Shown one piece after another: positions 56-10,675 of a DNA stretch of 10,730 nucleotides. Both the position numbers and the translations under genes were made by a program. Source of the stretch: a virus. The notes below the pieces were generated by a model. The model did no database searches. It had not been told where the DNA came from and saw only the letters and a program-made list of their open reading frames with translations. The stretch lies in the UHGV virus genome UHGV-0119078, one strand, 5' to 3'. Each line of letters opens with the position of its first letter. Position 1 is the first letter of the stretch.

Positions 56-110
56 ATGAAGTCTATTCGGTTTTCTAAGAGACCTGTTAATTACAGGACA
101 ATATCAGGTG

Positions 111-135
111 TAGTTGGGCTTGTTCCAACCCCTAT
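111..135. repeat. Left copy of 25-bp direct repeat TAGTTGGGCTTGT(T/A)CCAACCCCTAT
   Basis: 24/25 identity with 2914..2938; contains dyad GTTGG-N7-CCAAC. Confidence 0.6.
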
Positions 136-312
136 GACTATGCAATTTAACGGTATTTTTCCAAGTATCTAAGCAGTTTTACACAGATTCTATGCAGTAT
201 CGGTATAGTCCCTTTTTAGCATAACTTATTGAAATATATAAAGAATCTTTGAAGTCTCTTTTCAGGGTAAACTGTATCGTGTTAGTCGTCCCTCTCTCGA
301 CTCCTAGAAAAG

Positions 313-345
313 TGCTATATACAGGGCTATATAACGCTATCTATG
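313..345. promoter_or_regulatory. Three iterated GCTATATA/GCTATCTA motifs at about 10-12 bp spacing, downstream of the small recombinase gene
   Basis: GCTATATA at 314..321 and 326..333, GCTATCTA at 336..343; reverse complement of the TATAGC motifs found upstream of the recombinase gene (1097..1200). Confidence 0.3.
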
Positions 346-462
346 CAGTTGGTCACACAGAATAACTATCAAGCTGCTTAACAGTTTCTTACGTGAAAGT
401 TATTTCTGAGGGTGGGTAAGTGTTCAGGAGATTTTGCGTAGGACACGCTTAGAGAGTGGATA

Positions 463-488
463 CAAAAAAGCCCCCATGAAGGAGGCTA
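463..488 (-). terminator. Rho-independent terminator candidate for the small serine recombinase gene
   Basis: On the minus strand: stem AGCCUCC / GGGGGCU (7 bp, one G-U pair), loop UUCAU, followed by U6 (plus-strand A6 at 464..469). Confidence 0.45.
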
Positions 489-513
489 TGAAGATGCTAC
501 TAAGTTTTTTTTT

Positions 514-1089
514 TTACAGTGTCTTTGTCCAGTGACGGCTAACCGTTCTTACAGAGAGATTCAGAAGCTTTGCAACCTGACTTTGTGACAATCCCTTTGC
601 CTTATGCTCTAAAACGGCCTCTGTAGTGTTCACAGCTACAGGACGACCCAACACCTTACCTTGTGCTTTAACACGCTGTAGACCCTGCTTAGTACGCTCT
701 CTGATGCGGTTACGTTCGAACTCTGCAAAAGCCCCGAACATTTGAAGCATCATTCTACCTTCTGGCTTGGATAAGTCCTGTATGGGCAAGTCTAAGCAAA
801 TTAGCTTAATCCCTTTTGCAATGAGCATATCAACCGTTTTCTGTAGGTCGATACAATCACGTCCTAAACGGTCAAGCTTGAGAACCACCAGCGTATCACC
901 AGCCTCTAGTTTATGTGTGACCAAGTTAGAGAACTCTTTACGCTCCATAGCAGCCACTGAACCGGATACTACTTCTTCTATGATTCGTGTCTTAGGGATT
1001 GTGTAACCTGCATTCTTGATGGCTTCAATCTGGTTCTCATTGGTGGAGTCATCAACTGATACACGACAGTAAGCAAAGATGCGTGACAT
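514..1089 (-). CDS. Small serine recombinase, resolvase/invertase family (Hin/Gin/TnpR-like)
   Basis: 191-aa ORF; N-terminal catalytic block YCRVS, conserved GDTLVVLKLDRLGRD and ERTKQGLQRVKAQGKVLGRP blocks closely resembling Hin/Gin and Tn3-type resolvases; C-terminal HTH-like region; SD-like AAGGGA upstream of the ATG. Confidence 0.85.
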   Translation of the reverse strand: MSRIFAYCRVSVDDSTNENQIEAIKNAGYTIPKTRIIEEVVSGSVAAMERKEFSNLVTHKLEAGDTLVVLKLDRLGRDCIDLQKTVDMLIAKGIKLICLDLPIQDLSKPEGRMMLQMFGAFAEFERNRIRERTKQGLQRVKAQGKVLGRPVAVNTTEAVLEHKAKGLSQSQVAKLLNLSVRTVSRHWTKTL

Positions 1090-1096
1090 GTTCTAT

Positions 1097-1200
1097 CCCT
1101 TCTATATAGCCAACAAAGGCCTGTCTTGCTTGTCTATAGCCATTAAATCAATTATCACAATTGTTGTCTATAGCTACAGCTACCTTTTTATATAGACACT
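1097..1200. promoter_or_regulatory. Cluster of TGTCTATAGC-type motifs in both orientations immediately upstream of the small recombinase gene (candidate res-like/accessory binding region and promoter)
   Basis: TCTATATAGCC 1101..1111, TGTCTATAGCC 1131..1141, TGTCTATAGCT 1165..1175, inverted TATATAGACA 1190..1199; 1165..1199 forms an imperfect 35-bp palindrome (TGTCTATA ... TATAGACA). Confidence 0.4.
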
Positions 1201-1544
1201 TAACGGGCGTTTGTTGTCATGTGTATTTATACAGTTAAAGACCTCGATAGATGCCTTTATAGCAACTCACAGAGAAAGTCAATGATATTTGGCTTTTTTG
1301 CAAAGGGGGTCACATAGCTGGTGTGACGGGTACTTAGCAGACATACAGATATTTTCGAAGATTCGGGGAAGATGAGATTCAAAGAGGGCTAGTCATTTTT
1401 TATAAAAATTTTCAGAGACTGAAAAGTTACTGTACAGATTTTGCACAATCTTACCAAGCCTCATAGTTGATTCGATTAGAAGCTAATCTCATAGAAAGCT
1501 CTGTAGCGAGTTTTAACCCCATTTTTAGGGGTAACCTATAGGGA

Positions 1545-1641
1545 TGTACTAACCACCTTAAAATAAAGGGGTAAAATCGCTTAGAATGCGTTACAGAGCG
1601 TCTGAGAAGCCATATTCACAGATTTTACTAAAGTCTCAGAC
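1545..1641. repeat. Left arm of about 97-bp imperfect inverted repeat (pairs with 4417..4513)
   Basis: Ungapped alignment of 1545..1641 with the reverse complement of 4417..4513 gives about 69% identity, with core blocks 27/31 (1581..1611 vs 4447..4477) and 12/13 (1629..1641 vs 4417..4429); both arms begin with TGT at the outer end. Confidence 0.7.
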
Positions 1642-1661
1642 TTCTAAGTGGTCTTTTTAAC

Positions 1662-1710
1662 AGGAGGGGTTCCCCTATGGTCACATATCCCCTCTCTCTC
1701 CCGCTTAGTG
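1662..1710 (+). repeat. Copy 1 of a three-member motif family: G-rich hairpin followed by TCTCCCGCTTAGTG
   Basis: AGGAGGGGTTCCCCT hairpin then GGTCACAT then TCTCCCGCTTAGTG (1697..1710, identical 14-mer also at 2371..2384). Confidence 0.5.
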
Positions 1711-2114
1711 TCCCTTGATAGTATCTAGAGAGTATGCCTGTAAAACTTCTATATCAGGTCAGATTTAGAGGGTTTGATAGAATCTTCAAAGGTACTTGAC
1801 AGATAACTATGAAGTTGCCAGGAAGGAGTGTTTAACGGGAGGAAAGATACGATATAACCCGAAGGGGAGAGTATCATCTTAACAATTATCTTAAGAATAA
1901 AAACTGAAAAATTCTTAACAGAACTACCAAGAGGGAGCGATAAGACCAGAGGTAGTGACCTTGTTAAATAGGCCGTTTCAAAGCTCTTAAGAGTTTGTTA
2001 AGTAATGGCTATGTGAACAATCTTACCACTTTGTCAATGCTTTTGTCTTTGACCTAAATCAATAAAATGTATCGTTTGATGCACTTTTAAACAAAATAGC
2101 TAAAAAATCTTTTT

Positions 2115-2163
2115 AGAGGGGCGCTTCGCTTGGGGTCACTATGTTCTTTCTCTCCCGTTAAGA
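2115..2163 (+). repeat. Copy 2 (divergent) of the G-rich hairpin / TCTCTCCCG motif family
   Basis: AGAGGGGCGCTTCGCTTGGGGTCACT ... TTTCTCTCCCGTTAAG; shares GGGGTCAC and TCTCTCCCG with the copies at 1662 and 2338. Confidence 0.4.
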
Positions 2164-2337
2164 GGGAAGTTACAGGGACATTTCAAAGCCCTGATAAGGT
2201 AAGCCCGATGATAACAGAAACAGAGGGCAAAACCACTTATCAACACTGTGAACGAATAACGTAAAGGGCTGGTTAAGAAGGTCGGTTTAGGGATTGGTAG
2301 ATGATTCGGATGAAGCATCCTCATAACAATACCAATT

Positions 2338-2384
2338 AGAAGGGAGCTTCCCTTTCTTGGGTGTCGCTCTTCTCCCGCTTAGTG
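2338..2384 (+). repeat. Copy 3 of the G-rich hairpin / TCTCCCGCTTAGTG motif family
   Basis: AGAAGGGAGCTTCCCTTTC hairpin then TCTTCTCCCGCTTAGTG; 14-mer 2371..2384 identical to 1697..1710. Confidence 0.5.
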
Positions 2385-2413
2385 GATTGATTAAGAAGAC
2401 CTCTGAAGTTTCT

Positions 2414-2584
2414 CTGTGAAGGTGCTGGACAGCCTTATATATGGCTAATTACAACTTATTGAAAAATAAGAACTTTTAGAAGTTACTGTTAAGGTTACGG
2501 AGTTAACTGTGAAGAGACTTGTCAGTTCTCTATATATGGCTAATTACAACTTATTGAAAAATAAGAACTTTTAGAAGTTACTGT
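2414..2584 (+). repeat. Tandem direct repeat, two units (2414..2489 and 2507..2584) with a perfect 54-bp core (2436..2489 = 2531..2584)
   Basis: Core TATATATGGCTAATTACAACTTATTGAAAAATAAGAACTTTTAGAAGTTACTGT is identical in both units; each core holds a 6-bp stem with GAAA tetraloop (CTTATT-GAAA-AATAAG) and an adjacent 5-bp hairpin (AACTT-TTAG-AAGTT); units share CTGTGAAG upstream with a divergent linker. Confidence 0.75.
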
Positions 2585-2684
2585 CAGAGAGGTGAATACT
2601 TGATAGATACAGCTTTCCGGTTCTGTCAAGAGGTTTCACTACCCACCAGCTAAAAATATTTCAGAGGCGGGAGTGATGGGGGGG

Positions 2685-2861
2685 TTAGGACGGGTCTTTG
2701 TGGTCATTATCCTTAAGGTCAAGCGTCCATGTACGACCGAACAGTTTAAAGACAACAAGCACTCTGACGAGGACGTAGCGGAGTAACAGACCTGCAATCA
2801 GCCCGATACCTCCACCAGCCCATACATCAGGTGACCCCAGTTCAGGAGGGAGATTTACCAT
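2685..2861 (-). CDS. Candidate small membrane protein (58 aa from internal ATG with AGGAAA SD-like sequence; 70 aa if started at 2897)
   Basis: ORF encodes one strongly hydrophobic segment (WAGGGIGLIAGLLLRYVLVRVLVVFKLF) followed by a charged tail; locally GC-richer than surroundings. No recognisable family; could be spurious. Confidence 0.3.
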   Translation of the reverse strand: MVNLPPELGSPDVWAGGGIGLIAGLLLRYVLVRVLVVFKLFGRTWTLDLKDNDHKDPS

Positions 2862-2913
2862 TAAATTTCCTGTGTGCAATGCAATACCATGTGACATACA
2901 TAGTTGATTCGGT

Positions 2914-2938
2914 TAGTTGGGCTTGTACCAACCCCTAT
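2914..2938. repeat. Right copy of 25-bp direct repeat TAGTTGGGCTTGT(T/A)CCAACCCCTAT
   Basis: 24/25 identity with 111..135; lies just upstream (on the minus strand) of the small membrane ORF and about 90 bp upstream of the 3026 promoter. Confidence 0.6.
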
Positions 2939-3025
2939 CGAATAAACCTCATAGCCACGCCTTTATATTTTACTCTCCCCATAGAACCATTATACCACAG
3001 ATGTTAATAAAATGTTAAAAAATAC

Positions 3026-3054
3026 TTGACATTAGTCTTTGAAAATGCTAGTAT
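3026..3054 (+). promoter_or_regulatory. Sigma70/SigA-type promoter for the 3106..4417 operon
   Basis: Consensus -35 TTGACA (3026..3031), 17-bp spacer, extended -10 TGcTAGTAT (3046..3054), followed by ATTGTATATATA element shared with the 4553 promoter. Confidence 0.55.
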
Positions 3055-3105
3055 TGTATATATAAGTTAACAGAATAATAACATCTTATGAGGGTCGGAA
3101 CATGA

Positions 3106-3663
3106 ATGAGAGACGCAGAATTTAGAGCGATGCTTCAGGCATCGAGACAACGTAACAAGCACAACTCCTACGCTTACACAAACTCCCCCACCAGCCACGA
3201 ATTACCCAAGTTTACCAAGAAAGAACGCAAAGGCATTGACGAAGTAATTCGGGCAATTACACCGAGGAACCGTTACATGCCAACACGCAAAACAACAAAG
3301 AACAGCATCAAGAATTATCTGGCTAGCTTTGACAGCTACGCGCAACTACCGAGCAAGCTTGATGATATTTTTATTGGATTTTGCAGAAGCGAGGGTCACC
3401 AGAAATACAACCAGAAGGTTTTTTATTTACTGCGAAGTCTTGATGAAATTAACTCAGCCACCGTGACAAATCATCTTCAGCGTCAAGCAACCAGACTTAG
3501 CCATGAATTACCAAGCGATAAATATTGCGCTTTGCTTGCTGTAATGTGCGCAAAGTTAATTGGTGTTGTTGAGCATCATATTGCCGTTGGAAATATTGAG
3601 CCAATGGAAAACGAGCAACCAGATTTCGAGTTTGACCCGTATTTAGTTACAGAGGAATTTTAA
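3106..3663 (+). CDS. Hypothetical protein (185 aa), basic N-terminus, acidic C-terminal tail
   Basis: Intact ORF directly downstream of the predicted promoter; GAGGG SD-like sequence upstream; stop codon directly abuts the next ATG (TAAATG). No family recognised. Confidence 0.65.
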   Translation: MRDAEFRAMLQASRQRNKHNSYAYTNSPTSHELPKFTKKERKGIDEVIRAITPRNRYMPTRKTTKNSIKNYLASFDSYAQLPSKLDDIFIGFCRSEGHQKYNQKVFYLLRSLDEINSATVTNHLQRQATRLSHELPSDKYCALLAVMCAKLIGVVEHHIAVGNIEPMENEQPDFEFDPYLVTEEF

Positions 3664-3942
3664 ATGAAGAAACACACTTTGACCCGTATTTCAGAGGAAG
3701 CTTTTAACGAGCTTACCAGAATTAAACGAGCTACTAACTTGCCTCATCAAACTGTAATGCAGCTTGCAATTGCTAAAGAGGTCACTGAGTCGGATTTACT
3801 TAAATATCCAGTCTCTAAAGGTCGTAAGCACATCCGAATTACTCAGGACGCTTTAGATACTTTGAAGGCACTTAACGGCTTTAAGATTGATATTGCCCGA
3901 CTATTGAGCATCAAAATTAACAAGCTATCTCAAGAGGTCTGA
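3664..3942 (+). CDS. Hypothetical small protein (92 aa)
   Basis: ORF tightly packed between the upstream and downstream genes (2-nt gap to next ATG), consistent with an operon. No family recognised. Confidence 0.6.
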   Translation: MKKHTLTRISEEAFNELTRIKRATNLPHQTVMQLAIAKEVTESDLLKYPVSKGRKHIRITQDALDTLKALNGFKIDIARLLSIKINKLSQEV

Positions 3943-3944
3943 CT

Positions 3945-4217
3945 ATGAAGCAATGGCGAGATGATATTAAACGGTTCTTTGCAACTTACTTCATGATTAA
4001 TTACGAAACAGGAATGCTTGAATGGATTGATGGTGGAGAGGTTAAGACAAGAGATGACGCTTACGGTAATCCAATGATTCGTTATGGCACTCGTGATTAT
4101 TATGTGAAATATGTCATCTGGTTTTTGCATCATGAAGTTCAGGCAACTAAAAAAATTATCTTCAGGGATGGTAATAAAAGAAATTGCCACCCAAACAATT
4201 TACTACTGGAGATTTAA
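3945..4217 (+). CDS. HNH-like small protein (HNH_3-type fold), probably degenerate at the catalytic histidine
   Basis: 90-aa ORF with NYETGMLEW (matches the Y-x-ETG-x-x-x-W N-terminal signature of phage HNH_3 proteins) and a C-terminal IIFRDGNKRNCHPNNLLL block aligning with the IDHxDGN...N..NL HNH core, but with Phe/Arg where the catalytic His is expected. Confidence 0.5.
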   Translation: MKQWRDDIKRFFATYFMINYETGMLEWIDGGEVKTRDDAYGNPMIRYGTRDYYVKYVIWFLHHEVQATKKIIFRDGNKRNCHPNNLLLEI

Positions 4218-4417
4218 TGCTATGTATTAAATTCGAATATTTGACAGATAAAATGATTAAGCATGTATCAGACCTGCTCATCAAAGAAGGTGGTTTCGGT
4301 GATGCTTGCAATCCAAAAGATATCTTCATTCATGCCACCAGCCCAAACGCAACACTAAAGACAGCAGTTACAGCGGAATGGTTTGAACGAAATAAAGCGG
4401 AATTAGGTTATTGGTAG
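4217..4417 (+). CDS. Hypothetical small protein (66 aa), translationally coupled to the HNH-like gene
   Basis: ATG at 4217 overlaps the upstream TAA stop (TAATG); GGAG 5 nt upstream. The longer ORF-track start at 4184 lacks an RBS. No family recognised. Confidence 0.45.
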   Translation: MLCIKFEYLTDKMIKHVSDLLIKEGGFGDACNPKDIFIHATSPNATLKTAVTAEWFERNKAELGYW

Positions 4418-4513
4418 TCCGAGACTTTAAGAGAAATTAGAAAAACAGCTTCTCAGACGCTCTCAATCGCATTCTAACGCAAAAAACTACCTTATTTTAG
4501 GGTGGGTAACACA
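4417..4513. repeat. Right arm of about 97-bp imperfect inverted repeat (pairs with 1545..1641)
   Basis: See left arm; this arm starts at the stop codon of the 4217..4417 ORF and ends about 40 bp before the 4553 promoter. Confidence 0.7.
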
Positions 4514-4552
4514 GTAAATAAGAATTGATGTTACCAATCTGTTAAAAAGCTG

Positions 4553-4581
4553 TTGACAAATAACCTTAAGCATGACATAAT
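4553..4581 (+). promoter_or_regulatory. Sigma70/SigA-type promoter for the 4923..9034 gene set
   Basis: Consensus -35 TTGACA (4553..4558), 17-bp spacer, extended -10 TGaCATAAT (4573..4581), followed by ATTGTATATATA (4580..4591), identical to the element at 3053..3064. Confidence 0.5.
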
Positions 4582-4848
4582 TGTATATATAGGGAGAGCA
4601 ATTCTCCTTGAATTAAACTATTAATCGTTCTACATCAATGATAGTTGTTTTGAGTTGGAAAGGTGCAATGCTTTTCGTCATGGCCTATTTAGCCCACACT
4701 AGATAGGCTATCTCAAAAAGTACTCTTGTTCATTCGTTTGAATCCCTTAGATGTTTTAATTTCTTCACCTTATGAATGGCCCTTTATAAGAAATTATCTA
4801 GGGCTATTCAGTTTTTAAAAAGCATACTTGGCAAACCGCCTTTTAAGT

Positions 4849-4913
4849 CTCTTCTAAGTTTGTAGGCTGTCAGGTGTGCTTTTTAAAAACTGAAATACTT
4901 TAGCTTAGAAGAG
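4849..4913 (+). promoter_or_regulatory. 5-prime-UTR hairpin predicted to sequester the ribosome-binding site of the 4923 gene
   Basis: Perfect 10-bp inverted repeat CTCTTCTAAG (4849..4858) / CTTAGAAGAG (4904..4913) with a 45-nt loop; the 3-prime arm overlaps the SD (GAAGAGG) 10 nt upstream of the ATG; the UTR from the predicted promoter is about 330 nt. Confidence 0.35.
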
Positions 4914-4922
4914 GAAAAAACA

Positions 4923-5633
4923 ATGACAAACGATATTTACATTAACGGTAAAAAGATTGATAGCTTCGGTGACTGGTCGCCACAGACTGAACATCCAGCT
5001 ATCACTATTCAGCGTAAAGAACACGATGAAAGAATTAAGCTTGAGCAATCGTTAAAGATGTCACCAAAGGTAATTTCCTTTGTGTCTCCTGAGCCTCAAG
5101 AAATGCCAGATATCTGCAAAAGTGAAGCACTATTTAATCTTGAGCGTGAATACTACCCACAGTTAAAAGAACAGCGTATTCGACTTGATGACGCTTACAG
5201 CAAAGTTACCCTGATGCAATCAGCTATTGAGCCATCAGAATTTGAGATTCAGGATGAATTGTCACAGAAACCATTTGTCTATTACCAATATGAAGACAAT
5301 GATGGTTTTGGTACTTTTCCTGAGAATATCCCAGACGTGATTAATAATCTTTCTGACGGATATCGAATTGTGAAGATGATTGGAGCTTCAAGAGGTGCTG
5401 GTCAGTTTATTTACATGACCAATAAGAGCGATGAAGAACTCCGTGAAATTGCCAGACAGAACATCTTAGCATCACGTAACAAGCAACTTGAAAATGTTAA
5501 GTTGTGTCTCTTAAGAGAGCTTCAGGCTATGAAAGACCTTATTTCTGCATATGAAACGCAGAAGAAGGTTGCTATGCAGGCTGATATTGAGCAGTTAGTG
5601 AAGATTTCTCAGAAATACGCAAAGGCACTTTGA
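4923..5633 (+). CDS. Hypothetical protein (236 aa) with predicted C-terminal coiled coil
   Basis: Intact ORF with AGAGGAA SD-like sequence; no family recognised by inspection. Confidence 0.65.
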   Translation: MTNDIYINGKKIDSFGDWSPQTEHPAITIQRKEHDERIKLEQSLKMSPKVISFVSPEPQEMPDICKSEALFNLEREYYPQLKEQRIRLDDAYSKVTLMQSAIEPSEFEIQDELSQKPFVYYQYEDNDGFGTFPENIPDVINNLSDGYRIVKMIGASRGAGQFIYMTNKSDEELREIARQNILASRNKQLENVKLCLLRELQAMKDLISAYETQKKVAMQADIEQLVKISQKYAKAL

Positions 5634-5658
5634 CTATGAATTAAAAAGGAGGTGATGA

Positions 5659-5862
5659 ATGTTTGATTTAACGGAACGCTATGAACTTATTAAAGCAATT
5701 AGCGAGAGATTGAAAGAACAACCCAACAAACCAAAACGAATCAAATCATCCACCTCTAGGCAAAATAGCAGAATCAGAAGAATCGCTAAATGGTGTCTTG
5801 ATAAATTACCAAGTGATTGTCAGATTGTCGGTGAAGATGGTAATTATTATCTGATTAGATAA
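5659..5862 (+). CDS. Hypothetical small basic protein (67 aa)
   Basis: Strong SD AAAGGAGGTG 7 nt upstream of the ATG; lysine/arginine-rich central segment (KPKRIKSSTSRQNSRIRRIAKW), suggesting nucleic-acid binding. Confidence 0.55.
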   Translation: MFDLTERYELIKAISERLKEQPNKPKRIKSSTSRQNSRIRRIAKWCLDKLPSDCQIVGEDGNYYLIR

Positions 5863-5909
5863 AGAATTGGTTGGGTGTATGAGATAGGTTCTATCGAATC
5901 TATAACACG

Positions 5910-5951
5910 GGGAGAGATTATCGATATTATTCGGTAGTTTCTCCCTTTTTT
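5910..5951 (+). terminator. Possible intrinsic terminator/attenuator between the 67-aa gene and the tape-measure-like gene
   Basis: GGGAGA (5910..5915) pairs with TCTCCC (5940..5945) around a 24-nt loop containing the palindrome TATCGATA, followed by T6 (5946..5951). The long loop makes this weaker than a canonical terminator. Confidence 0.3.
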
Positions 5952-5980
5952 GTATATGAAACTTAAGAGGTGAAATATGA

Positions 5981-8107
5981 ATGAGCAAATTCACAGTTGA
6001 TAGTTTTATCGTTGAGTTAGGCTTCAGCGAGAACGTTATTAAGGGCTTGCAAAGAGTTGAAAAAGCAGCTTTGCAGTCAGCACAAAGAATTGAAAAGAAC
6101 CTAAATAAAGGCTTCAAGATTAATACAAAGCAACTTGACAGTAATCTGACAAGTTCTTTGAAGTCAATGGAAGGGAAAATTAATAAGACCTTTGACCGTC
6201 TGGAAGCTAGAGCAAGAAATACTAGAGTTTTCCGTTTCACAAGTCAGGTTAATGACGTTATTAATCCGCCAAAACAACCGAGGCCAAGAAGAGTTACTAG
6301 TGACCGAGCTATTACAGCGGCTTATTCAGCGAATATGACTAAGCTGAAAGGTCTTAACCCAATTGTCGAGAAATACATTAAGAGTCAGTTTTACGCATTA
6401 AGTAGTAAAGCTGGTCAGATGGATAACACCAAGTTTAATGAAGCCCTTGCTAAACTAAATTCAAGTGTACGAGAAGCAATTGCTAAAGCCAGAGGTCATA
6501 CATCCACCAGCATTAACGGTGACAGAGCAGCTAATAGTCTTGATAGTTTGAGTTCAGCAGCAGTTAAAACAGCAGGTGCATTTATCAGCTTTCAGGCTGT
6601 ACTATCCGCTTATCAGAAGATTATGGAAGTTGGCCTTCAACGTGCATCATCGGAAAGAAGTATTGATTTCGTATTCGGTGACCAAAGTACACAGGTCAAA
6701 AAGTTCATTCAAGATTTAACTCAAATTACTGGTATGGACACAACCGAAACACAAGCACAGTTTGCTTCATTTGGTGCATCTGCAAAAAATACGATGGGTC
6801 TTGAAGGCTCAGAGGAATTATTTAAAAACTTAACTGGATATGCCCGTTTAATGGGTCGTTCAGATGAGCAGATTCAAAGAGCATTAACCGCAGTATCGCA
6901 GATGGCTTCTAAGGGTCAGGTGATGGCTGAAGAGCTTAAGGGGCAACTATCTGAAGCTTTACCGGGTGCTACTCAGGCATTTGCAAAGGCTTTAGGTCTG
7001 ACTGAAAAACAGCTTTTCGATAAGATGAAAAATGGTGATGTTAAAGCCTCTGATGCACTCCCTAAGTTTGCTAAAGAACTTGGTTCACAGATTAATTCCA
7101 GAGGTGGCTGGAAAGCTATTCAGGACTCTACGCAGACGATGTTAGGGAACTTAAAGAATACTTGGAACAACTCACTAACGGATATCTTCAGAGGTTCTGA
7201 AAATGGTCTTCAAGATTTCACAAGAAGCTTAACCAATCTTTTAAATAGTCTTGGTGGGAGTGGTAAAACATTAGGTGAAAGTCTTGGTAATCTCATGACT
7301 TCTATGTCACACGGTGTCGATAACCTGACTGATATTAGTTACAGGGTAAGGGCGTTCTTTGACGAGGTGACATTGGCTTATCGTTCACTAAATGACACTC
7401 AGAAAAAAATTGTTGATGGCCTATCTGATGGGTTAATTGATGGTTTGAAGATGCTTGCTGTAGCTGTTACTGCTCAAAAGGCTGCAAATGTAGCTGGAGG
7501 CTTGTTAAACCTTGCAAATGCTGTTACTTCATTCGGTGACGCTGTTAATAAAGCTAAAGCTGGCAAGGCTGGTTCTTCAGGTGGTGCGCTAAATAAAGTT
7601 GGTAGAGTTGTTCTTTATGCTGAGTTGGTGAACTTTGCTCTTGATAATTTAAACCCTGAAGCGGCTAAGAATCCGAACTTACACCAATCAGGTATTGGAA
7701 CAGAGACAAACTTCAACCCTGAATACAAAGGCGATTCATCTAAACCAAACCAAATTAATGATGGATGGGCTAAGATTGGTGGTTCTATCGCTGACTGGTT
7801 TAATGGTGCAGCTAATAAAATTGCTAACTTCCAAGAACCGATGAATAACTTCGTAAATAACACACAATCAACTCCACCAGCTATCGACACGGTTAATAGC
7901 AATGCTCAATTAGCTATGGCTGTATCAGAGTTAGGAAGAAAGGTAGACGCTTTAACAGCAGAAACTAAGAAGCCCTTGTCACTTAATATCAAAGGTGAAG
8001 CAATTGTTAGGCCGGATGAACCATCTTTCTTTATTTTCAATCAATCGGCTAATGACCAGTTCACGCAGGATATGCTCTTAAGTTCAAGCTATCCAGAAGA
8101 AGAATGA
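5981..8107 (+). CDS. Tape-measure-protein-like protein (708 aa)
   Basis: Central block GQVMAEELKGQLSEALPGATQAFAKALGLTEKQLFDKMKNGDVKASDALPKFAKELG resembles the conserved core of phage tail tape measure proteins (recalled from memory, not searched); alpha-helical, Ala/Gly/Ser/Asn-rich, low-complexity C-terminal part; AAGAGGTGA SD. Coding confidence is high; the functional call is moderate. Confidence 0.55.
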   Translation: MSKFTVDSFIVELGFSENVIKGLQRVEKAALQSAQRIEKNLNKGFKINTKQLDSNLTSSLKSMEGKINKTFDRLEARARNTRVFRFTSQVNDVINPPKQPRPRRVTSDRAITAAYSANMTKLKGLNPIVEKYIKSQFYALSSKAGQMDNTKFNEALAKLNSSVREAIAKARGHTSTSINGDRAANSLDSLSSAAVKTAGAFISFQAVLSAYQKIMEVGLQRASSERSIDFVFGDQSTQVKKFIQDLTQITGMDTTETQAQFASFGASAKNTMGLEGSEELFKNLTGYARLMGRSDEQIQRALTAVSQMASKGQVMAEELKGQLSEALPGATQAFAKALGLTEKQLFDKMKNGDVKASDALPKFAKELGSQINSRGGWKAIQDSTQTMLGNLKNTWNNSLTDIFRGSENGLQDFTRSLTNLLNSLGGSGKTLGESLGNLMTSMSHGVDNLTDISYRVRAFFDEVTLAYRSLNDTQKKIVDGLSDGLIDGLKMLAVAVTAQKAANVAGGLLNLANAVTSFGDAVNKAKAGKAGSSGGALNKVGRVVLYAELVNFALDNLNPEAAKNPNLHQSGIGTETNFNPEYKGDSSKPNQINDGWAKIGGSIADWFNGAANKIANFQEPMNNFVNNTQSTPPAIDTVNSNAQLAMAVSELGRKVDALTAETKKPLSLNIKGEAIVRPDEPSFFIFNQSANDQFTQDMLLSSSYPEEE

Positions 8108-8263
8108 TTTAACGGTGTTCTACGTGAATAAAGCAAAGTTAATACCCGCACTGAAAAATAATTTTTACGTAGCTCACGCTTAACAGAGAAAATACTTATA
8201 TATCAAAGGCTTGGTTAAAAATGATTAAAATACACTAAGCCTTTGAAATCAAAGGAGAATTTA

Positions 8264-9034
8264 ATGATTTTTAGCAATCAAATCCGCTACAGTGGCAAAG
8301 ATGGCGTTTACTTCCACTTAAGAGATAATGTAGATGCCTTCTTAACCTTATCAGCAACTGAACAGATGGAATATGACAGCCCTATGATGGTGACAACTCA
8401 GGCTATGCAATCGGGGCAAACTATAACTGATAATGTTCAGAGAGCACCTAAGACCATCTCTATTAGCGGTGTTGTAGTGGTTGATTCGACGGGTTCAGTT
8501 CTATTAACCAGACAGGGGCAACTTGTAGAAACCTTTATTTCTACGGTTGAACAATGGCGAGACCAGAAGCAAATCATCACTATTGTTTGTAAAGATGGAA
8601 TATCTATCACTGATAGTATCATTACTCAGTTTAAAGCGAGTAAAGAGCATACCATTGCTAATGGTCTTCGTATTCAGATGACCTTCCAAGGTGTAGAATT
8701 TCGTTCAATCGTAGGTCAAACTGATATTTCAGCAGCAACTGGAAAGACCGCTACCACGAATGATGGCGGTTCTACCAGTAAAAAGAACACTGGCAACACT
8801 ACAACGAGTCTTGGAAGCCCTATGCTGACCTGTAAAGAGCTTTTTAGCTATTCGGCAAGTGAGTTATCAGATGAAGCGCTAAAAGCCCGTGTAACGTGCT
8901 CTAAGAGCGTTAGCGTTAAAAATGGTGAGAGCACCTTCACAGCCTCAGCTAATGAGCAAGCTTCAAAGGTGCTTAAGTCGGGTAATGCTTTACGGAAGTT
9001 TTCTGTAAATCCGAACAAGAAGGGCACTTATTGA
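8264..9034 (+). CDS. Hypothetical protein (257 aa from ATG 8264), possibly tail-associated given its position after the tape-measure-like gene
   Basis: AAAGGAG SD 6 nt upstream of ATG 8264 (the ORF-track TTG start at 8243 has no RBS); Ser/Thr/Gly-rich central linker. No family recognised. Confidence 0.55.
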
Positions 9035-9038
9035 GACA

Positions 9039-9061
9039 TAAAAAGGGGCTTCATAGCCCCT
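9039..9061. terminator. Intrinsic terminator between convergent genes (strong for the minus-strand integrase gene)
   Basis: Perfect 7-bp stem AGGGGCT / AGCCCCT with loop TCAT (9044..9061); plus-strand A5 (9039..9043) gives a U-tract on the minus strand immediately after the integrase stop codon. Confidence 0.6.
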
Positions 9062-9066
9062 GAAAA

Positions 9067-10587
9067 TTACAGTTGATAAGCGTCTATTTCTAGTAGCTCT
9101 TTTTCAGCAATTTCAAATATTGATGTTCCATCATTTAGCGGTAACGGGTTTGTAGGTATGGTGATTTCAGTGTCGTTCTGTAGCGTTACAATTACCGAAT
9201 CCTTACCCAATGTAAGCCCTTTTAGATGTTTGGACAAAATCAACTGACACTCGACACGACCCGCTTTAGTTGTCAGGTCAATATCTTTAAGCTGGGGTAG
9301 TTCCTTATCAGTGAGTGAAGCCTTACGCCTCATGTTATCAATCGTGGTCTGTAGCTCTGTACGCCTCTGGTTCAGTTCCTTAATCTGAATTTTTAGTTCA
9401 TCAATATCATCCATCTCAAGAAGTAGGGCGGTAGCTTTCTTGATTCTGGTTGTGACAATTTCAACCTCATGCTGTAGAGATGCAATCTTCCCCTCTGCTT
9501 CTCCATCATTCCCCACGTCAATCATTCCTAGAAAATTTTCAAGCATCCACTTATCAAACGGTTTACGCTTCAACGGAGGAACATCACAGCGACCATCAAG
9601 ATGGTTATTGCACCGATAAACGCCCTGATACTTATTCTTAGTCCCTGTAGGGTGAACACTAGCCCCGCACTGACACCTAAACAGACCTTTGAAGATGTTA
9701 ATCGTTAATGGATTATCACTTGCAGGTGTACGGCCTATACGGTTCTTACCAAGAATCTCTTGAGCTTTATTGAACGTTGAAGCATCTATAGCGGCTTCGT
9801 AGTAGTTCGGTATAGCGGGGCGGTCATTACGTTGTGATGCTGGTAACGTGCCTATCGTTGTCTCTGACCTTAAGATGGTGCGTACAGAGTGAACACTAAA
9901 CCCGTTAGCATCTTTACGGCGACTAAACGACTTTATACCGTTGCTTTGAAGGTGACGGGCGATGTTATGCAGACTTTCACCACTTAGCAGCAGCTTGAAA
10001 ATCAGTCTTACAGTCTCAGCGTGTTCATTGAGTTTAAAAGTATCGGGGTCAATCCATCCGGGAACCATCTTTGTTAAACGTTGTTCACCAGCAAGGGCAA
10101 GTTTTGCACGTTGCTCCCATTTCTGAGAAACACGGAAAGACTTCTGCTTAGATTCCTGATGCGCTATGTAGGCTTTGACACGCTGGATGATTGAGATTCC
10201 TAAATCATCGGCTAAAGCATCCTTTGTGTAGATAAGACCATCTTGTAGCGTGTGAATCTCTAACCCGTTGCCTAAGATGCGATTCATCAAGGCTTCTGTT
10301 TCAAGGTGTTCTAAGCGGCCTATACGGTCGATACTCTCAACAAGCAAAATCGTACCTTCTGGAAACTCCCCAGACTCAATACGGGCTAACATGTCACCAA
10401 ACTGACCAGTAAGATGCTTACCTTTGTAACCGGATAGACCTTCATCACTGAAAGACGCTACTACTTGAGCATCGCTATTCTTCTTCAGCCACTGCTTGAA
10501 CAGGTCGTTTTGTCGTCTGGTTGAATCTGCACCTTCAGCGCCTTGTATGGCTGATGAGAATCTCAAGTATGTTATTACGGTTCTCAC
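9067..10587 (-). CDS. Large serine recombinase (phage-type serine integrase)
   Basis: 506-aa ORF; N-terminal resolvase-type catalytic domain (YLRFSSAIQ, LLVESIDRIGR), extended recombinase domain, Cys-rich zinc-ribbon-like motif (CQCGASVHP ... YRCNNHLDGRCD) and C-terminal coiled coil (KIQIKELNQRRTELQTTIDNMRRK); start codon appears to be GTG (plus-strand CAC at 10585..10587) with GGAG upstream. Confidence 0.85.
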   Translation of the reverse strand: MRTVITYLRFSSAIQGAEGADSTRRQNDLFKQWLKKNSDAQVVASFSDEGLSGYKGKHLTGQFGDMLARIESGEFPEGTILLVESIDRIGRLEHLETEALMNRILGNGLEIHTLQDGLIYTKDALADDLGISIIQRVKAYIAHQESKQKSFRVSQKWEQRAKLALAGEQRLTKMVPGWIDPDTFKLNEHAETVRLIFKLLLSGESLHNIARHLQSNGIKSFSRRKDANGFSVHSVRTILRSETTIGTLPASQRNDRPAIPNYYEAAIDASTFNKAQEILGKNRIGRTPASDNPLTINIFKGLFRCQCGASVHPTGTKNKYQGVYRCNNHLDGRCDVPPLKRKPFDKWMLENFLGMIDVGNDGEAEGKIASLQHEVEIVTTRIKKATALLLEMDDIDELKIQIKELNQRRTELQTTIDNMRRKASLTDKELPQLKDIDLTTKAGRVECQLILSKHLKGLTLGKDSVIVTLQNDTEITIPTNPLPLNDGTSIFEIAEKELLEIDAYQL

Positions 10588-10675
10588 GGTGATAAACTCC
10601 CATGCAATTGATTATCATTTAAAGATGAACTTATAAACGTTATGGCTAATGCTACAATGCCGAATAGCTACAATA

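Follow-up and report, generated by a model that had tools for sequence, protein, structure and literature searches.

What is the function of the long leader that would precede the gene for a 236-amino-acid protein starting at ATG 4923 of the virus genome UHGV-0119078, and how might it control translation of that gene? An initial annotation of this 10,730-nt stretch of DNA (hereafter, the window) proposed that 4582-4925 is a long 5′ untranslated region with a hairpin that occludes the ribosome-binding site, acting as an RNA thermometer, a riboswitch-like element or the target of an antisense or protein regulator. Our analysis leads us to a model in which 4582-4925 is the ~335-nt 5′ leader RNA of a tail-gene operon in a chromosomal island related to phage Felix O1, and imposes a default-off translational block. 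We consider this model to have about an even chance of being correct. The leader itself is a conserved structured RNA family, new to Rfam 15, with clear covariation. Its principal features are the following.

4553..4581, plus strand: sigma-70-type promoter, with -35 TTGACA at 4553-4558, a 17-nt spacer and an extended -10 element TGaCATAAT at 4573-4581 (-10 hexamer 4576-4581)
4590..4610, plus strand: hairpin A at the predicted 5′ end, an 8-bp stem closed by loop GCAAU (-8.5 kcal/mol, z = -2.9)
4658..4677, plus strand: 20-mer GAAAGGTGCAATGCTTTTCG, shared without change by every relative to which the 236-amino-acid protein first led
4670..4720, plus strand: hairpin B, with an outer stem 4671-4678/4713-4720 and an inner 13-bp stem 4680-4692/4699-4711
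4774..4816, plus strand: hairpin C, GAAUGGCCCU (4774-4783) with AGGGCUAUUC (4800-4809) and then a U-run at 4812-4816, abutting hairpin D
4807..4894, plus strand: hairpin D, a 27-bp stem 4807-4833/4868-4894 with a 34-nt apical region 4834-4867

Both the promoter-like site placed at 4553 by the initial annotation and its leader of about 330 nt were borne out. TTGACA, a 17-nt spacer and TGn-CATAAT are present as stated, and roughly 335 nt lie between ATG 4923 and a transcript start predicted at ~4587-4589. The promoter-like site scores 11/12 with its extended -10, the joint best in the window with one minus-strand site, and a scan of 4582-4922 found no further promoter-like site. TTGACA-17-CATAAT was invariant in 81/81 relatives (those in which the promoter falls inside the stretch examined), and the promoter looks constitutive. 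A perfect 7-bp inverted repeat, GGTAACA/TGTTACC (4505-4511 and 4529-4535), is centered ~67 nt before the predicted start; two aligned relatives, E14 and O157, match the window exactly in the downstream arm and with no more than one base changed in the upstream arm. This repeat is a possible operator or activator site.

Relatives of the leader were gathered via the 236-amino-acid protein and via the invariant 20-mer at 4658-4677, the latter in viral and metagenome contigs, giving a set of 103 distinct leader segments and 82 distinct 125-nt tails. The leader is also present in 479 of 5426 complete E. coli genomes (~9%), with at most three copies per genome. The interval from promoter to ATG is the best-conserved part of the aligned segment, exceeding in conservation an extra gene that lies upstream in relatives. 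The fold of 4588-4960 has z = -6.56, with 0/100 shuffles as good, and forms hairpins A to D; individually, the leader hairpins each fold better than shuffles (z = -2.9 to -9.1). Every element contains G.U pairs and in 8/9 elements the plus-strand RNA is more stable than the minus-strand RNA. These are plus-strand RNA structures and not DNA palindromes. An Rfam 15 scan of 4540-4960 at E up to 10 returned only sub-threshold miRNA-like and small-RNA matches, and a BLAST search of the whole leader against phages gave no match at E up to 1. A conserved leader peptide was considered and rejected: the open reading frame (ORF) that starts from the 20-mer (MLF...) shifts in length and frame through a 2-nt indel among relatives. 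For the O157-type leader we found nine records at least 99% identical, with no reference strain among the 60 matches listed.

The hairpin GGAGA-GCAAT-TCTCC noted earlier at 4593-4607 is real and lies inside hairpin A. The stem is kept in relatives, in which GGAGA/TCTCC is replaced by GGAAG/CTTCC and by AGAGAG/CTCTCT, and hairpin A may act as a 5′ stabilizer. Hairpin B has z = -5.0 to -7.0 in four variants. When its first nine pairs were counted by script on 31 distinct actual sequences, since a MAFFT alignment had the 5′ arm out of register, 277/279 cells were standard pairs, and positions 3, 4 and 8 varied among G.U, G-C, A-U and C-G with pairing kept. Read from sequence, the 20-mer can fold GAAAGG/CUUUUC in competition with the outer stem of hairpin B. 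Hairpin C (-18.6 kcal/mol, z = -5.2) is terminator-like: it has a GCCCU/AGGGC core, a large loop and a U-run 2 nt past the stem, and a terminator scan did not call the site. The relatives examined carry a GCCCU...AGGGC hairpin with a U-run directly 5′ of hairpin D, many of them with a second copy upstream, and in many the U-run follows the stem of hairpin C immediately.

Two further observations concern variation among these elements. Most relatives (L004 and L006, for example) have an additional 60-110 nt between hairpins B and D that is missing from the window. This extra stretch contains a convincing terminator-like hairpin (GCCCTAATCATGATTAGGGC then GTTTCTTT) and a hairpin X that shows G.U to G-C changes; hairpin X of L004 includes a 17-nt exact match to the vWFA gene of the Felixounavirus garuso (59592-59608). 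In L008 and L064, the loops of hairpin A and of a hairpin labeled C2 are inverted between unchanged stems, CAATT becoming AATTG and TCACAGATTATGTTT becoming AAACATAATCTGTGA. These small inversions bounded by stem arms probably arose by template switching.

Hairpin D is central to our model. Folded alone it reaches -40.7 kcal/mol (z = -9.0). Among the 82 distinct tails it occurs as four strongly differing types, T1 (the type in the window, 41 tails), T2 (31), T3 (9) and T4 (1), with an inner stem that is common to T1 and T3 and not to T2 or T4. RNAalifold on seven representatives yielded a stem of 23 pairs in which 96.9% of cells are paired, compared with 78.3% in column shuffles and 40-48% in slid controls, and 15/23 pairs change on both sides (0/500 shuffles). 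The plus strand folds better than the minus strand in three of the four types. RNase III needs a near-perfect duplex of about 20 bp or more, and the near-perfect duplex of hairpin D, at 21-29 bp in all four types, is of that size.

How, then, could this structure reach the ribosome-binding site? The perfect 10-bp repeat on which the initial annotation rested, CTCTTCTAAG at 4849-4858 and CTTAGAAGAG at 4904-4913, is indeed 100% complementary with 45 nt between its arms. With G.U pairs included the helix grows to 13 bp, formed by these two arms.

4848..4860, plus strand: anti-Shine-Dalgarno arm UCUCUUCUAAGUU, in the apical loop of hairpin D; contains 4849-4858
4902..4914, plus strand: Shine-Dalgarno arm AGCUUAGAAGAGG, containing 4904-4913 and the core AAGAGG at 4909-4914, before ATG 4923

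Of the ribosome-binding site, AAGAG falls within the Watson-Crick 10-bp arm, and the final G can pair as G.U only. An upstream complement of the ribosome-binding site thus exists, and it is kept in all four types, but the proposed simple stem with a 45-nt loop fails, because the 5′ arm sits in the apical loop of the stronger 27-bp hairpin D. Enclosed in this way, the arm could contact the tail only through a pseudoknot-type or an intermolecular interaction. In the nested fold of 4588-4960 the Shine-Dalgarno core at 4909-4914 is unpaired in the centroid, leaving the loop contact as the only strong candidate for occlusion.

This complementarity was compared with chance in several ways. When the upstream 310 nt were shuffled 10,000 times, a perfect complement of 10 nt overlapping GAGG by 3 nt or more arose 39 times (~0.004, a figure that applies to the window alone), and 4.5% of shuffled leaders contained some perfect 10-bp inverted repeat whose spacer was no longer than 100 nt. 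The predicted duplex between the loop and the Shine-Dalgarno arm is -17.9 kcal/mol in the window as against -8.4 +/- 2.3 kcal/mol for shuffled loops, and across types the corresponding values are -14 to -23 kcal/mol and about -7 to -10 kcal/mol. Despite extensive mosaic change, 82/82 distinct tails have a pairing that spans 9 bp or more and takes in the Shine-Dalgarno core. The pairings by type are as follows.

T1: CUCUUCUAAG with CUUAGAAGAG, up to 13 bp
T2: CUUCUAAGUG(U) with (A)CACUUAGAGG, one G.U included
T3: a different ribosome-binding site, AGAGGUGAA, with UUCACCUCU in the loop
T4: 12 bp

The loops and ribosome-binding sites of T1, T2 and T4 are cross-compatible, and the cognate pairing of T3 is 9 bp compared with 6-8 bp for non-cognate combinations. 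The helix extends 5′ of the core in T1 and 3′ of the core in T3, a difference that indicates selection for pairing, not for sequence. Altogether, the evidence that the pairing is under selection is decent, not overwhelming. A second apparent target of the loop, at the ribosome-binding site of the tape measure gene (5961-5972, 12 bp with 2 G.U), was dismissed as chance since the upstream contexts there vary independently of loop type. A scan of the window for targets by energy alone returned mostly interrupted duplexes and gave no useful information.

The loop of hairpin D also resembles phage DNA. Whichard et al. proposed a promoter, P41, for the morphogenesis and packaging unit of Felix O1, a phage whose temporal transcriptional control had yet to be worked out at the time of that genome description (PMC3185647). 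Matches between loop and phage emerged from a short-word comparison with garuso. The T1 loop is reverse-complementary to garuso 49613-49632 (20/21; 0/300 shuffles), the T2 loop to 57695-57712 (17/18; 5/300 shuffles) and the T3 loop is complementary to 70562-70586, aGGUGAAgaaAUGACUGAACAAGAA (23/26; 1/300 shuffles); this comparison found no garuso match for the T4 loop. aGGUGAAgaaAUGACUGAACAAGAA lies inside the head maturation protease gene, where it seems to provide a nested, scaffold-like ORF with its ribosome-binding site and start. When the T1 and T3 leaders are compared with the phage in 34-nt windows, the hairpin D loop scores best in each. The site at 57695 is 4-25 nt past the start predicted from P41, and the 5′ end of this predicted phage late transcript, ACUUAGAAGAUAACUUAAAAGG, is complementary to 20-21 nt of the hairpin D loop.

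4838..4859, plus strand: loop dimer, CCUUUUAAGU followed by CUCUUCUAAGU, complementary to nt +4 to +25 of the predicted P41 transcript
Candidate trigger RNA from the phage P41 transcript, 3′ half: ACUUAAAAGG

With the first 40 nt of the predicted P41 transcript, predicted duplexes reach -25.8 (T1), -23.9 (T2) and -20.3 kcal/mol (T4), a level attained by 0/300 shuffled triggers, and the duplexes of these types with their own ribosome-binding sites are weaker, at -17.9, -17.3 and -18.0 kcal/mol, respectively. The T3 loop has no predicted pairing with these 40 nt.

The likeness extends beyond the loop. The -35 region of the island, AAAAAGCTGTTGACAAA, matches the P41 promoter region at 16/17 positions in the same sense. 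The ribosome-binding site and start of the 236-amino-acid gene, CTTAGAAGAGG..ATGACAAACGA, resemble those of gene 41 of phage Moogle, CTTAAAAGAGGTGAAGAAATGACTAAACGA (0/300 shuffles), as does the T3 ribosome-binding site, and the loop sequence GCCTTTTAAG..TCTTCTAAG resembles, in the same sense, the phage leader segment GCCTTTTAAGAGGTCTTATAAG beside the phage ribosome-binding site. From these sequence similarities, the control region of the island looks modeled on the late control region of its helper. The phage P41 leader shows >97% identity across 211 Felixounavirus records, an argument for its being functional, and 85-88% identity in Suspvirus and Mooglevirus. As an observation in its own right, the P41 promoter and its ~117-nt leader (garuso 57659-57815; Felix O1 NC_005282 21456-21716) are almost invariant across >200 genomes in three genera, and the leader is self-complementary, nt 19-43 with nt 87-109 beside the ribosome-binding site (z = -2.7). 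A T4-type late promoter at the phage site was rejected: TATAAATA occurs 3 times in garuso, on one strand, with about 7 expected.

We envision a scenario in which transcription from an invariant promoter close to the consensus yields a leader with four or more conserved hairpins, and in which the 13-bp pairing of the hairpin D loop with the ribosome-binding site 7 nt downstream would keep the 236-amino-acid gene off by default. The pairing could form in cis, as a strained loop-to-tail pseudoknot, or between molecules, for example if the RNase III-sized stem were cut and the loop freed as a small RNA. Infection by a Felix O1-like phage would lift the block. A more specific version of this scenario, which we put forward as a doubtful proposition, is that the leader is a natural toehold-type RNA switch that senses the late transcript of the helper phage. 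The hairpin D loop would then hold the ribosome-binding site of the tail operon until the single-stranded 5′ end of the P41 transcript displaced it, turning the island operon on in step with the late genes of the helper. The converse can also be formulated, that the loop RNA interferes with the phage by sequestering its late leader or, in T3 islands, the nested ORF's ribosome-binding site.

Several points weigh against the default-off model. The promoter and transcript start of the leader are predictions, and the terminator-like hairpins in the leader might be the actual control point. The loops of T1, T2 and T4 are homologous, so that the pairing has about two independent origins and not four, and loop and ribosome-binding site are at most 60 nt apart and co-inherited. 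Geometry is a further concern: the linkers that must bridge the stem of hairpin D are 7 + 7 nt in the window, and the tail linker of T2 is 4-5 nt, whereas a 27-bp stem measures ~76 Å. A cis pseudoknot would be strained and would probably require fully stretched linkers and a melted inner stem. Finally, the words of the loop and of the ribosome-binding site occur in control DNA of Felix O1-type phages and in the iteron arrays of Kolesnikvirus, and the repeat could therefore operate at the level of DNA or have been inherited passively.

These points lead to other explanations of the same data. The short linkers that disfavor a cis pseudoknot would be accommodated if hairpin D were excised as a stable trans-acting antisense RNA, of the kind of P1 C4 and P4 CI, that silences every copy of the operon in an immunity-like manner, with polar effects on the tail genes. 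This idea is consistent with an element that lies in an operon leader and matches the first ribosome-binding site of that operon, as reported for P4 CI, with a stem in every type that suffices for RNase III and with a constitutive-looking promoter. However, the Rfam C4 model (RF01695) was unmatched even at E up to 10, hairpin D has neither a terminator behind it nor a conserved 3′ CCA-like end, and genomes tolerate up to three copies. We regard excision as possible but unlikely. It is very improbable, in our view, that the repeat forms a simple cis hairpin serving as a thermometer or ligand-sensing riboswitch, the options named first by the initial annotation. The repeat is real and covers most of the Shine-Dalgarno sequence, but its 5′ arm is enclosed in a hairpin of -40.7 kcal/mol, and a mismatch-free 13-bp helix of -17.9 kcal/mol would not be heat-labile under physiological conditions. 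There was no match to the ROSE or FourU thermometers, to any other thermometer in Rfam or to an Rfam riboswitch aptamer, and the element is confined to one island family, upstream of phage tail genes. The remaining option of that annotation, the target of an antisense or protein regulator, is its most plausible one and is reinforced because the loop matches the phage late leader.

The complementarity might also have nothing to do with RNA pairing. The hairpin D loop consists of two tandem 11-mers, like a dimer of yCTTCTAAr, and the ribosome-binding-site arm is an inverted third copy; these could be DNA sites for a phage or island protein, such as a protein binding a late-operon operator or a replication initiator. 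In line with this possibility, a BLAST search of 50,697 phage records with the T1 loop gave 45 matches, of which about 36 were in Ounavirinae, mostly Kolesnikvirus (two checked taxonomically), and always in unannotated DNA. The match in phage phiEa21-4 lies inside an ORF-free region of ~1.2 kb with at least 15 phased yCTTCTAAr repeats, and garuso has two loop dimers, one spanning +4 to +25 relative to the predicted late promoter and the other, oppositely oriented, in an ORF-free region of 1.65 kb. Yet the leader has just three copies, and the absence of iteron-word enrichment in the window outside 4840-4913 led us to reject an iteron array or origin in the window. T3 lacks the motif, and its loop nevertheless complements the different ribosome-binding site of its own leader; pairing of the T2 arm depends on G.U, which in DNA would be a mismatch; and the motif tops a hairpin whose G.U pairs fit plus-strand RNA only. 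A role as DNA sites is distinctly unlikely on this evidence. We are just as skeptical of the notion that the promoter, leader tail and ribosome-binding site of the island are a passive relic of an internally complementary phage late control region, with any control exerted through read-through or antitermination at the terminator-like hairpins, of which each leader has one or two. The same-sense likeness of the -35 region to P41, that of the ribosome-binding sites (T3's included) to Moogle's and that of the loop to a phage leader segment are what such inheritance would leave; a relic fits poorly with pairing of at least 9 bp over the Shine-Dalgarno core in all 82 variants and with a T3 helix that extends on the opposite side of the core.

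The setting of the leader is a mobile one. The window corresponds to a ~10.6-kb integrative island (about 100-10640) that lies between yciI and tonB in E. coli 2017.18.02CC, with a 100% match except that the genome has an IS5 interrupting the tape measure gene. Its genes include the following, together with several further proteins without assignment.

514-1089, minus strand: small resolvase/invertase
3945-4217: HNH protein
4923..5633, plus strand: 236-amino-acid gene, the first after the leader, followed by a 67-amino-acid gene and the tape measure and Dit-like genes
5981-8107: tape measure gene, ~76% DNA identity to the Felixounavirus tape measure gene
8243/8264-9034: Dit-like gene, ~76% DNA identity to the gene after the tape measure in Felixounavirus, with the order kept
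9067-10587, minus strand: large serine recombinase

A capsid gene, a terminase gene and an obvious replication gene are all absent from the window. The island looks like an undescribed satellite-like or tail-interference element, and a literature search on it found no paper. The 236-amino-acid protein has no Pfam, PHROG, NCBIfam or PADLOC match, and tblastn found no phage homolog. Its family is narrow, with only 19 clusters at 50% identity among 1.8 billion proteins. The RefSeq label "transposase" carried by many homologs is unsupported by Pfam, NCBIfam, PHROG or PADLOC models. In distant relatives of the protein, the C-terminal third has weak coiled-coil-type matches only.

Other observations relate to the architecture of the island. 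Between the 67-amino-acid and tape measure genes lies a strong terminator-like hairpin (5909-5946; 16 pairs, then a T-run), so the tail genes may depend on read-through or on a second promoter. Relatives carry an additional gene of ~108 amino acids between the HNH region and the promoter (L002:6023-6590), which the window (about 4500-4510) lost via a deletion between two GGGTGGGTAA repeats. The ORF-poor interval 1090-3105 of the window contains a perfect 54-nt direct repeat (2436-2489/2531-2584; spacing 95 nt), and the matching stretch in relatives is occupied by an adenine methyltransferase gene. On the phage side, the ORF-free regions of 1.2-1.65 kb in Ounavirinae (phiEa21-4 16470-17660; garuso 49010-50600) carry yCTTCTAAr at ~11-nt spacing in Kolesnikvirus and yTGTTAAsA/CTTGTTAG in both. 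This phased-repeat region is possibly an origin or a protein-binding array.

Mobile satellites and defense islands must remain silent until the right phage comes. Known triggers are helper proteins, such as the antirepressors that act on Staphylococcus aureus pathogenicity islands (SaPIs) and P2 Ogr for P4. In the widespread E. coli island described here, borrowed tail genes lie behind a conserved RNA element, and the key loop of this element matches two sequences, the ribosome-binding site of the island itself and the start of a helper late message. If RNA sensing of the kind we outline proved true, it would represent a natural toehold switch and a new route by which a mobile element detects a virus. 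A conservative reading still adds an undescribed structured RNA family, absent from Rfam 15, and the work also points to an unstudied, almost invariant late leader in Felix O1-like phages.

Comparison with known systems helps to place the leader. It shares with the P41 leader of Felix O1 (PMC3185647) the -35 region, the words CUUAGAAGA and CCUUUUAAG and the context of the ribosome-binding site and start; in the phage, however, the leader is ~117 nt long and lacks hairpins A to D, and the common words are permuted, one of them inverted. IsrK of Gifsy-1 is a prophage leader RNA with a terminator whose short and read-through isoforms interact and thereby switch downstream translation (PMC4825925). 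Unlike the block considered here, IsrK activates, its sequence is unrelated, and isoforms of the island leader are hypothetical. In the CI system of P4, an antisense element within the leader of its own operon is complementary to downstream sequence of the same transcript (PMC4825925), and the C4 antisense RNA represses the immI operon (PMC8198154). The island leader resembles the C4/CI family (RF01695) in having a leader antisense that matches the ribosome-binding site of the first gene, a constitutive-looking promoter and a temperate or satellite setting. It differs in that it has no match to the family model, its antisense sits in the loop of a 27-bp hairpin 7 nt from the target, and no second copy of the target was found upstream. 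In P1, C4 likewise lies in a leader and complements the ribosome-binding region of the operon's first gene. RNase III processes hairpins in phage mRNA leaders, among them the lambda N leader and the T7 early sites, and hairpin D is similar in presenting a duplex of 21-29 bp directly before the ribosome-binding site of a phage-related operon. In the rpoS leader, an upstream strand occludes the ribosome-binding site, and the small RNAs DsrA, RprA and ArcZ open it by anti-antisense pairing. The island leader departs from this arrangement in that its occluding strand lies in a hairpin loop and its candidate activator is the end of a phage mRNA instead of a host small RNA. The logic could nonetheless be the same: a long leader, an upstream strand that, judged by sequence and predicted energy, would occlude the ribosome-binding site, and a candidate RNA that could free it, here the 5′ end of a phage late transcript.

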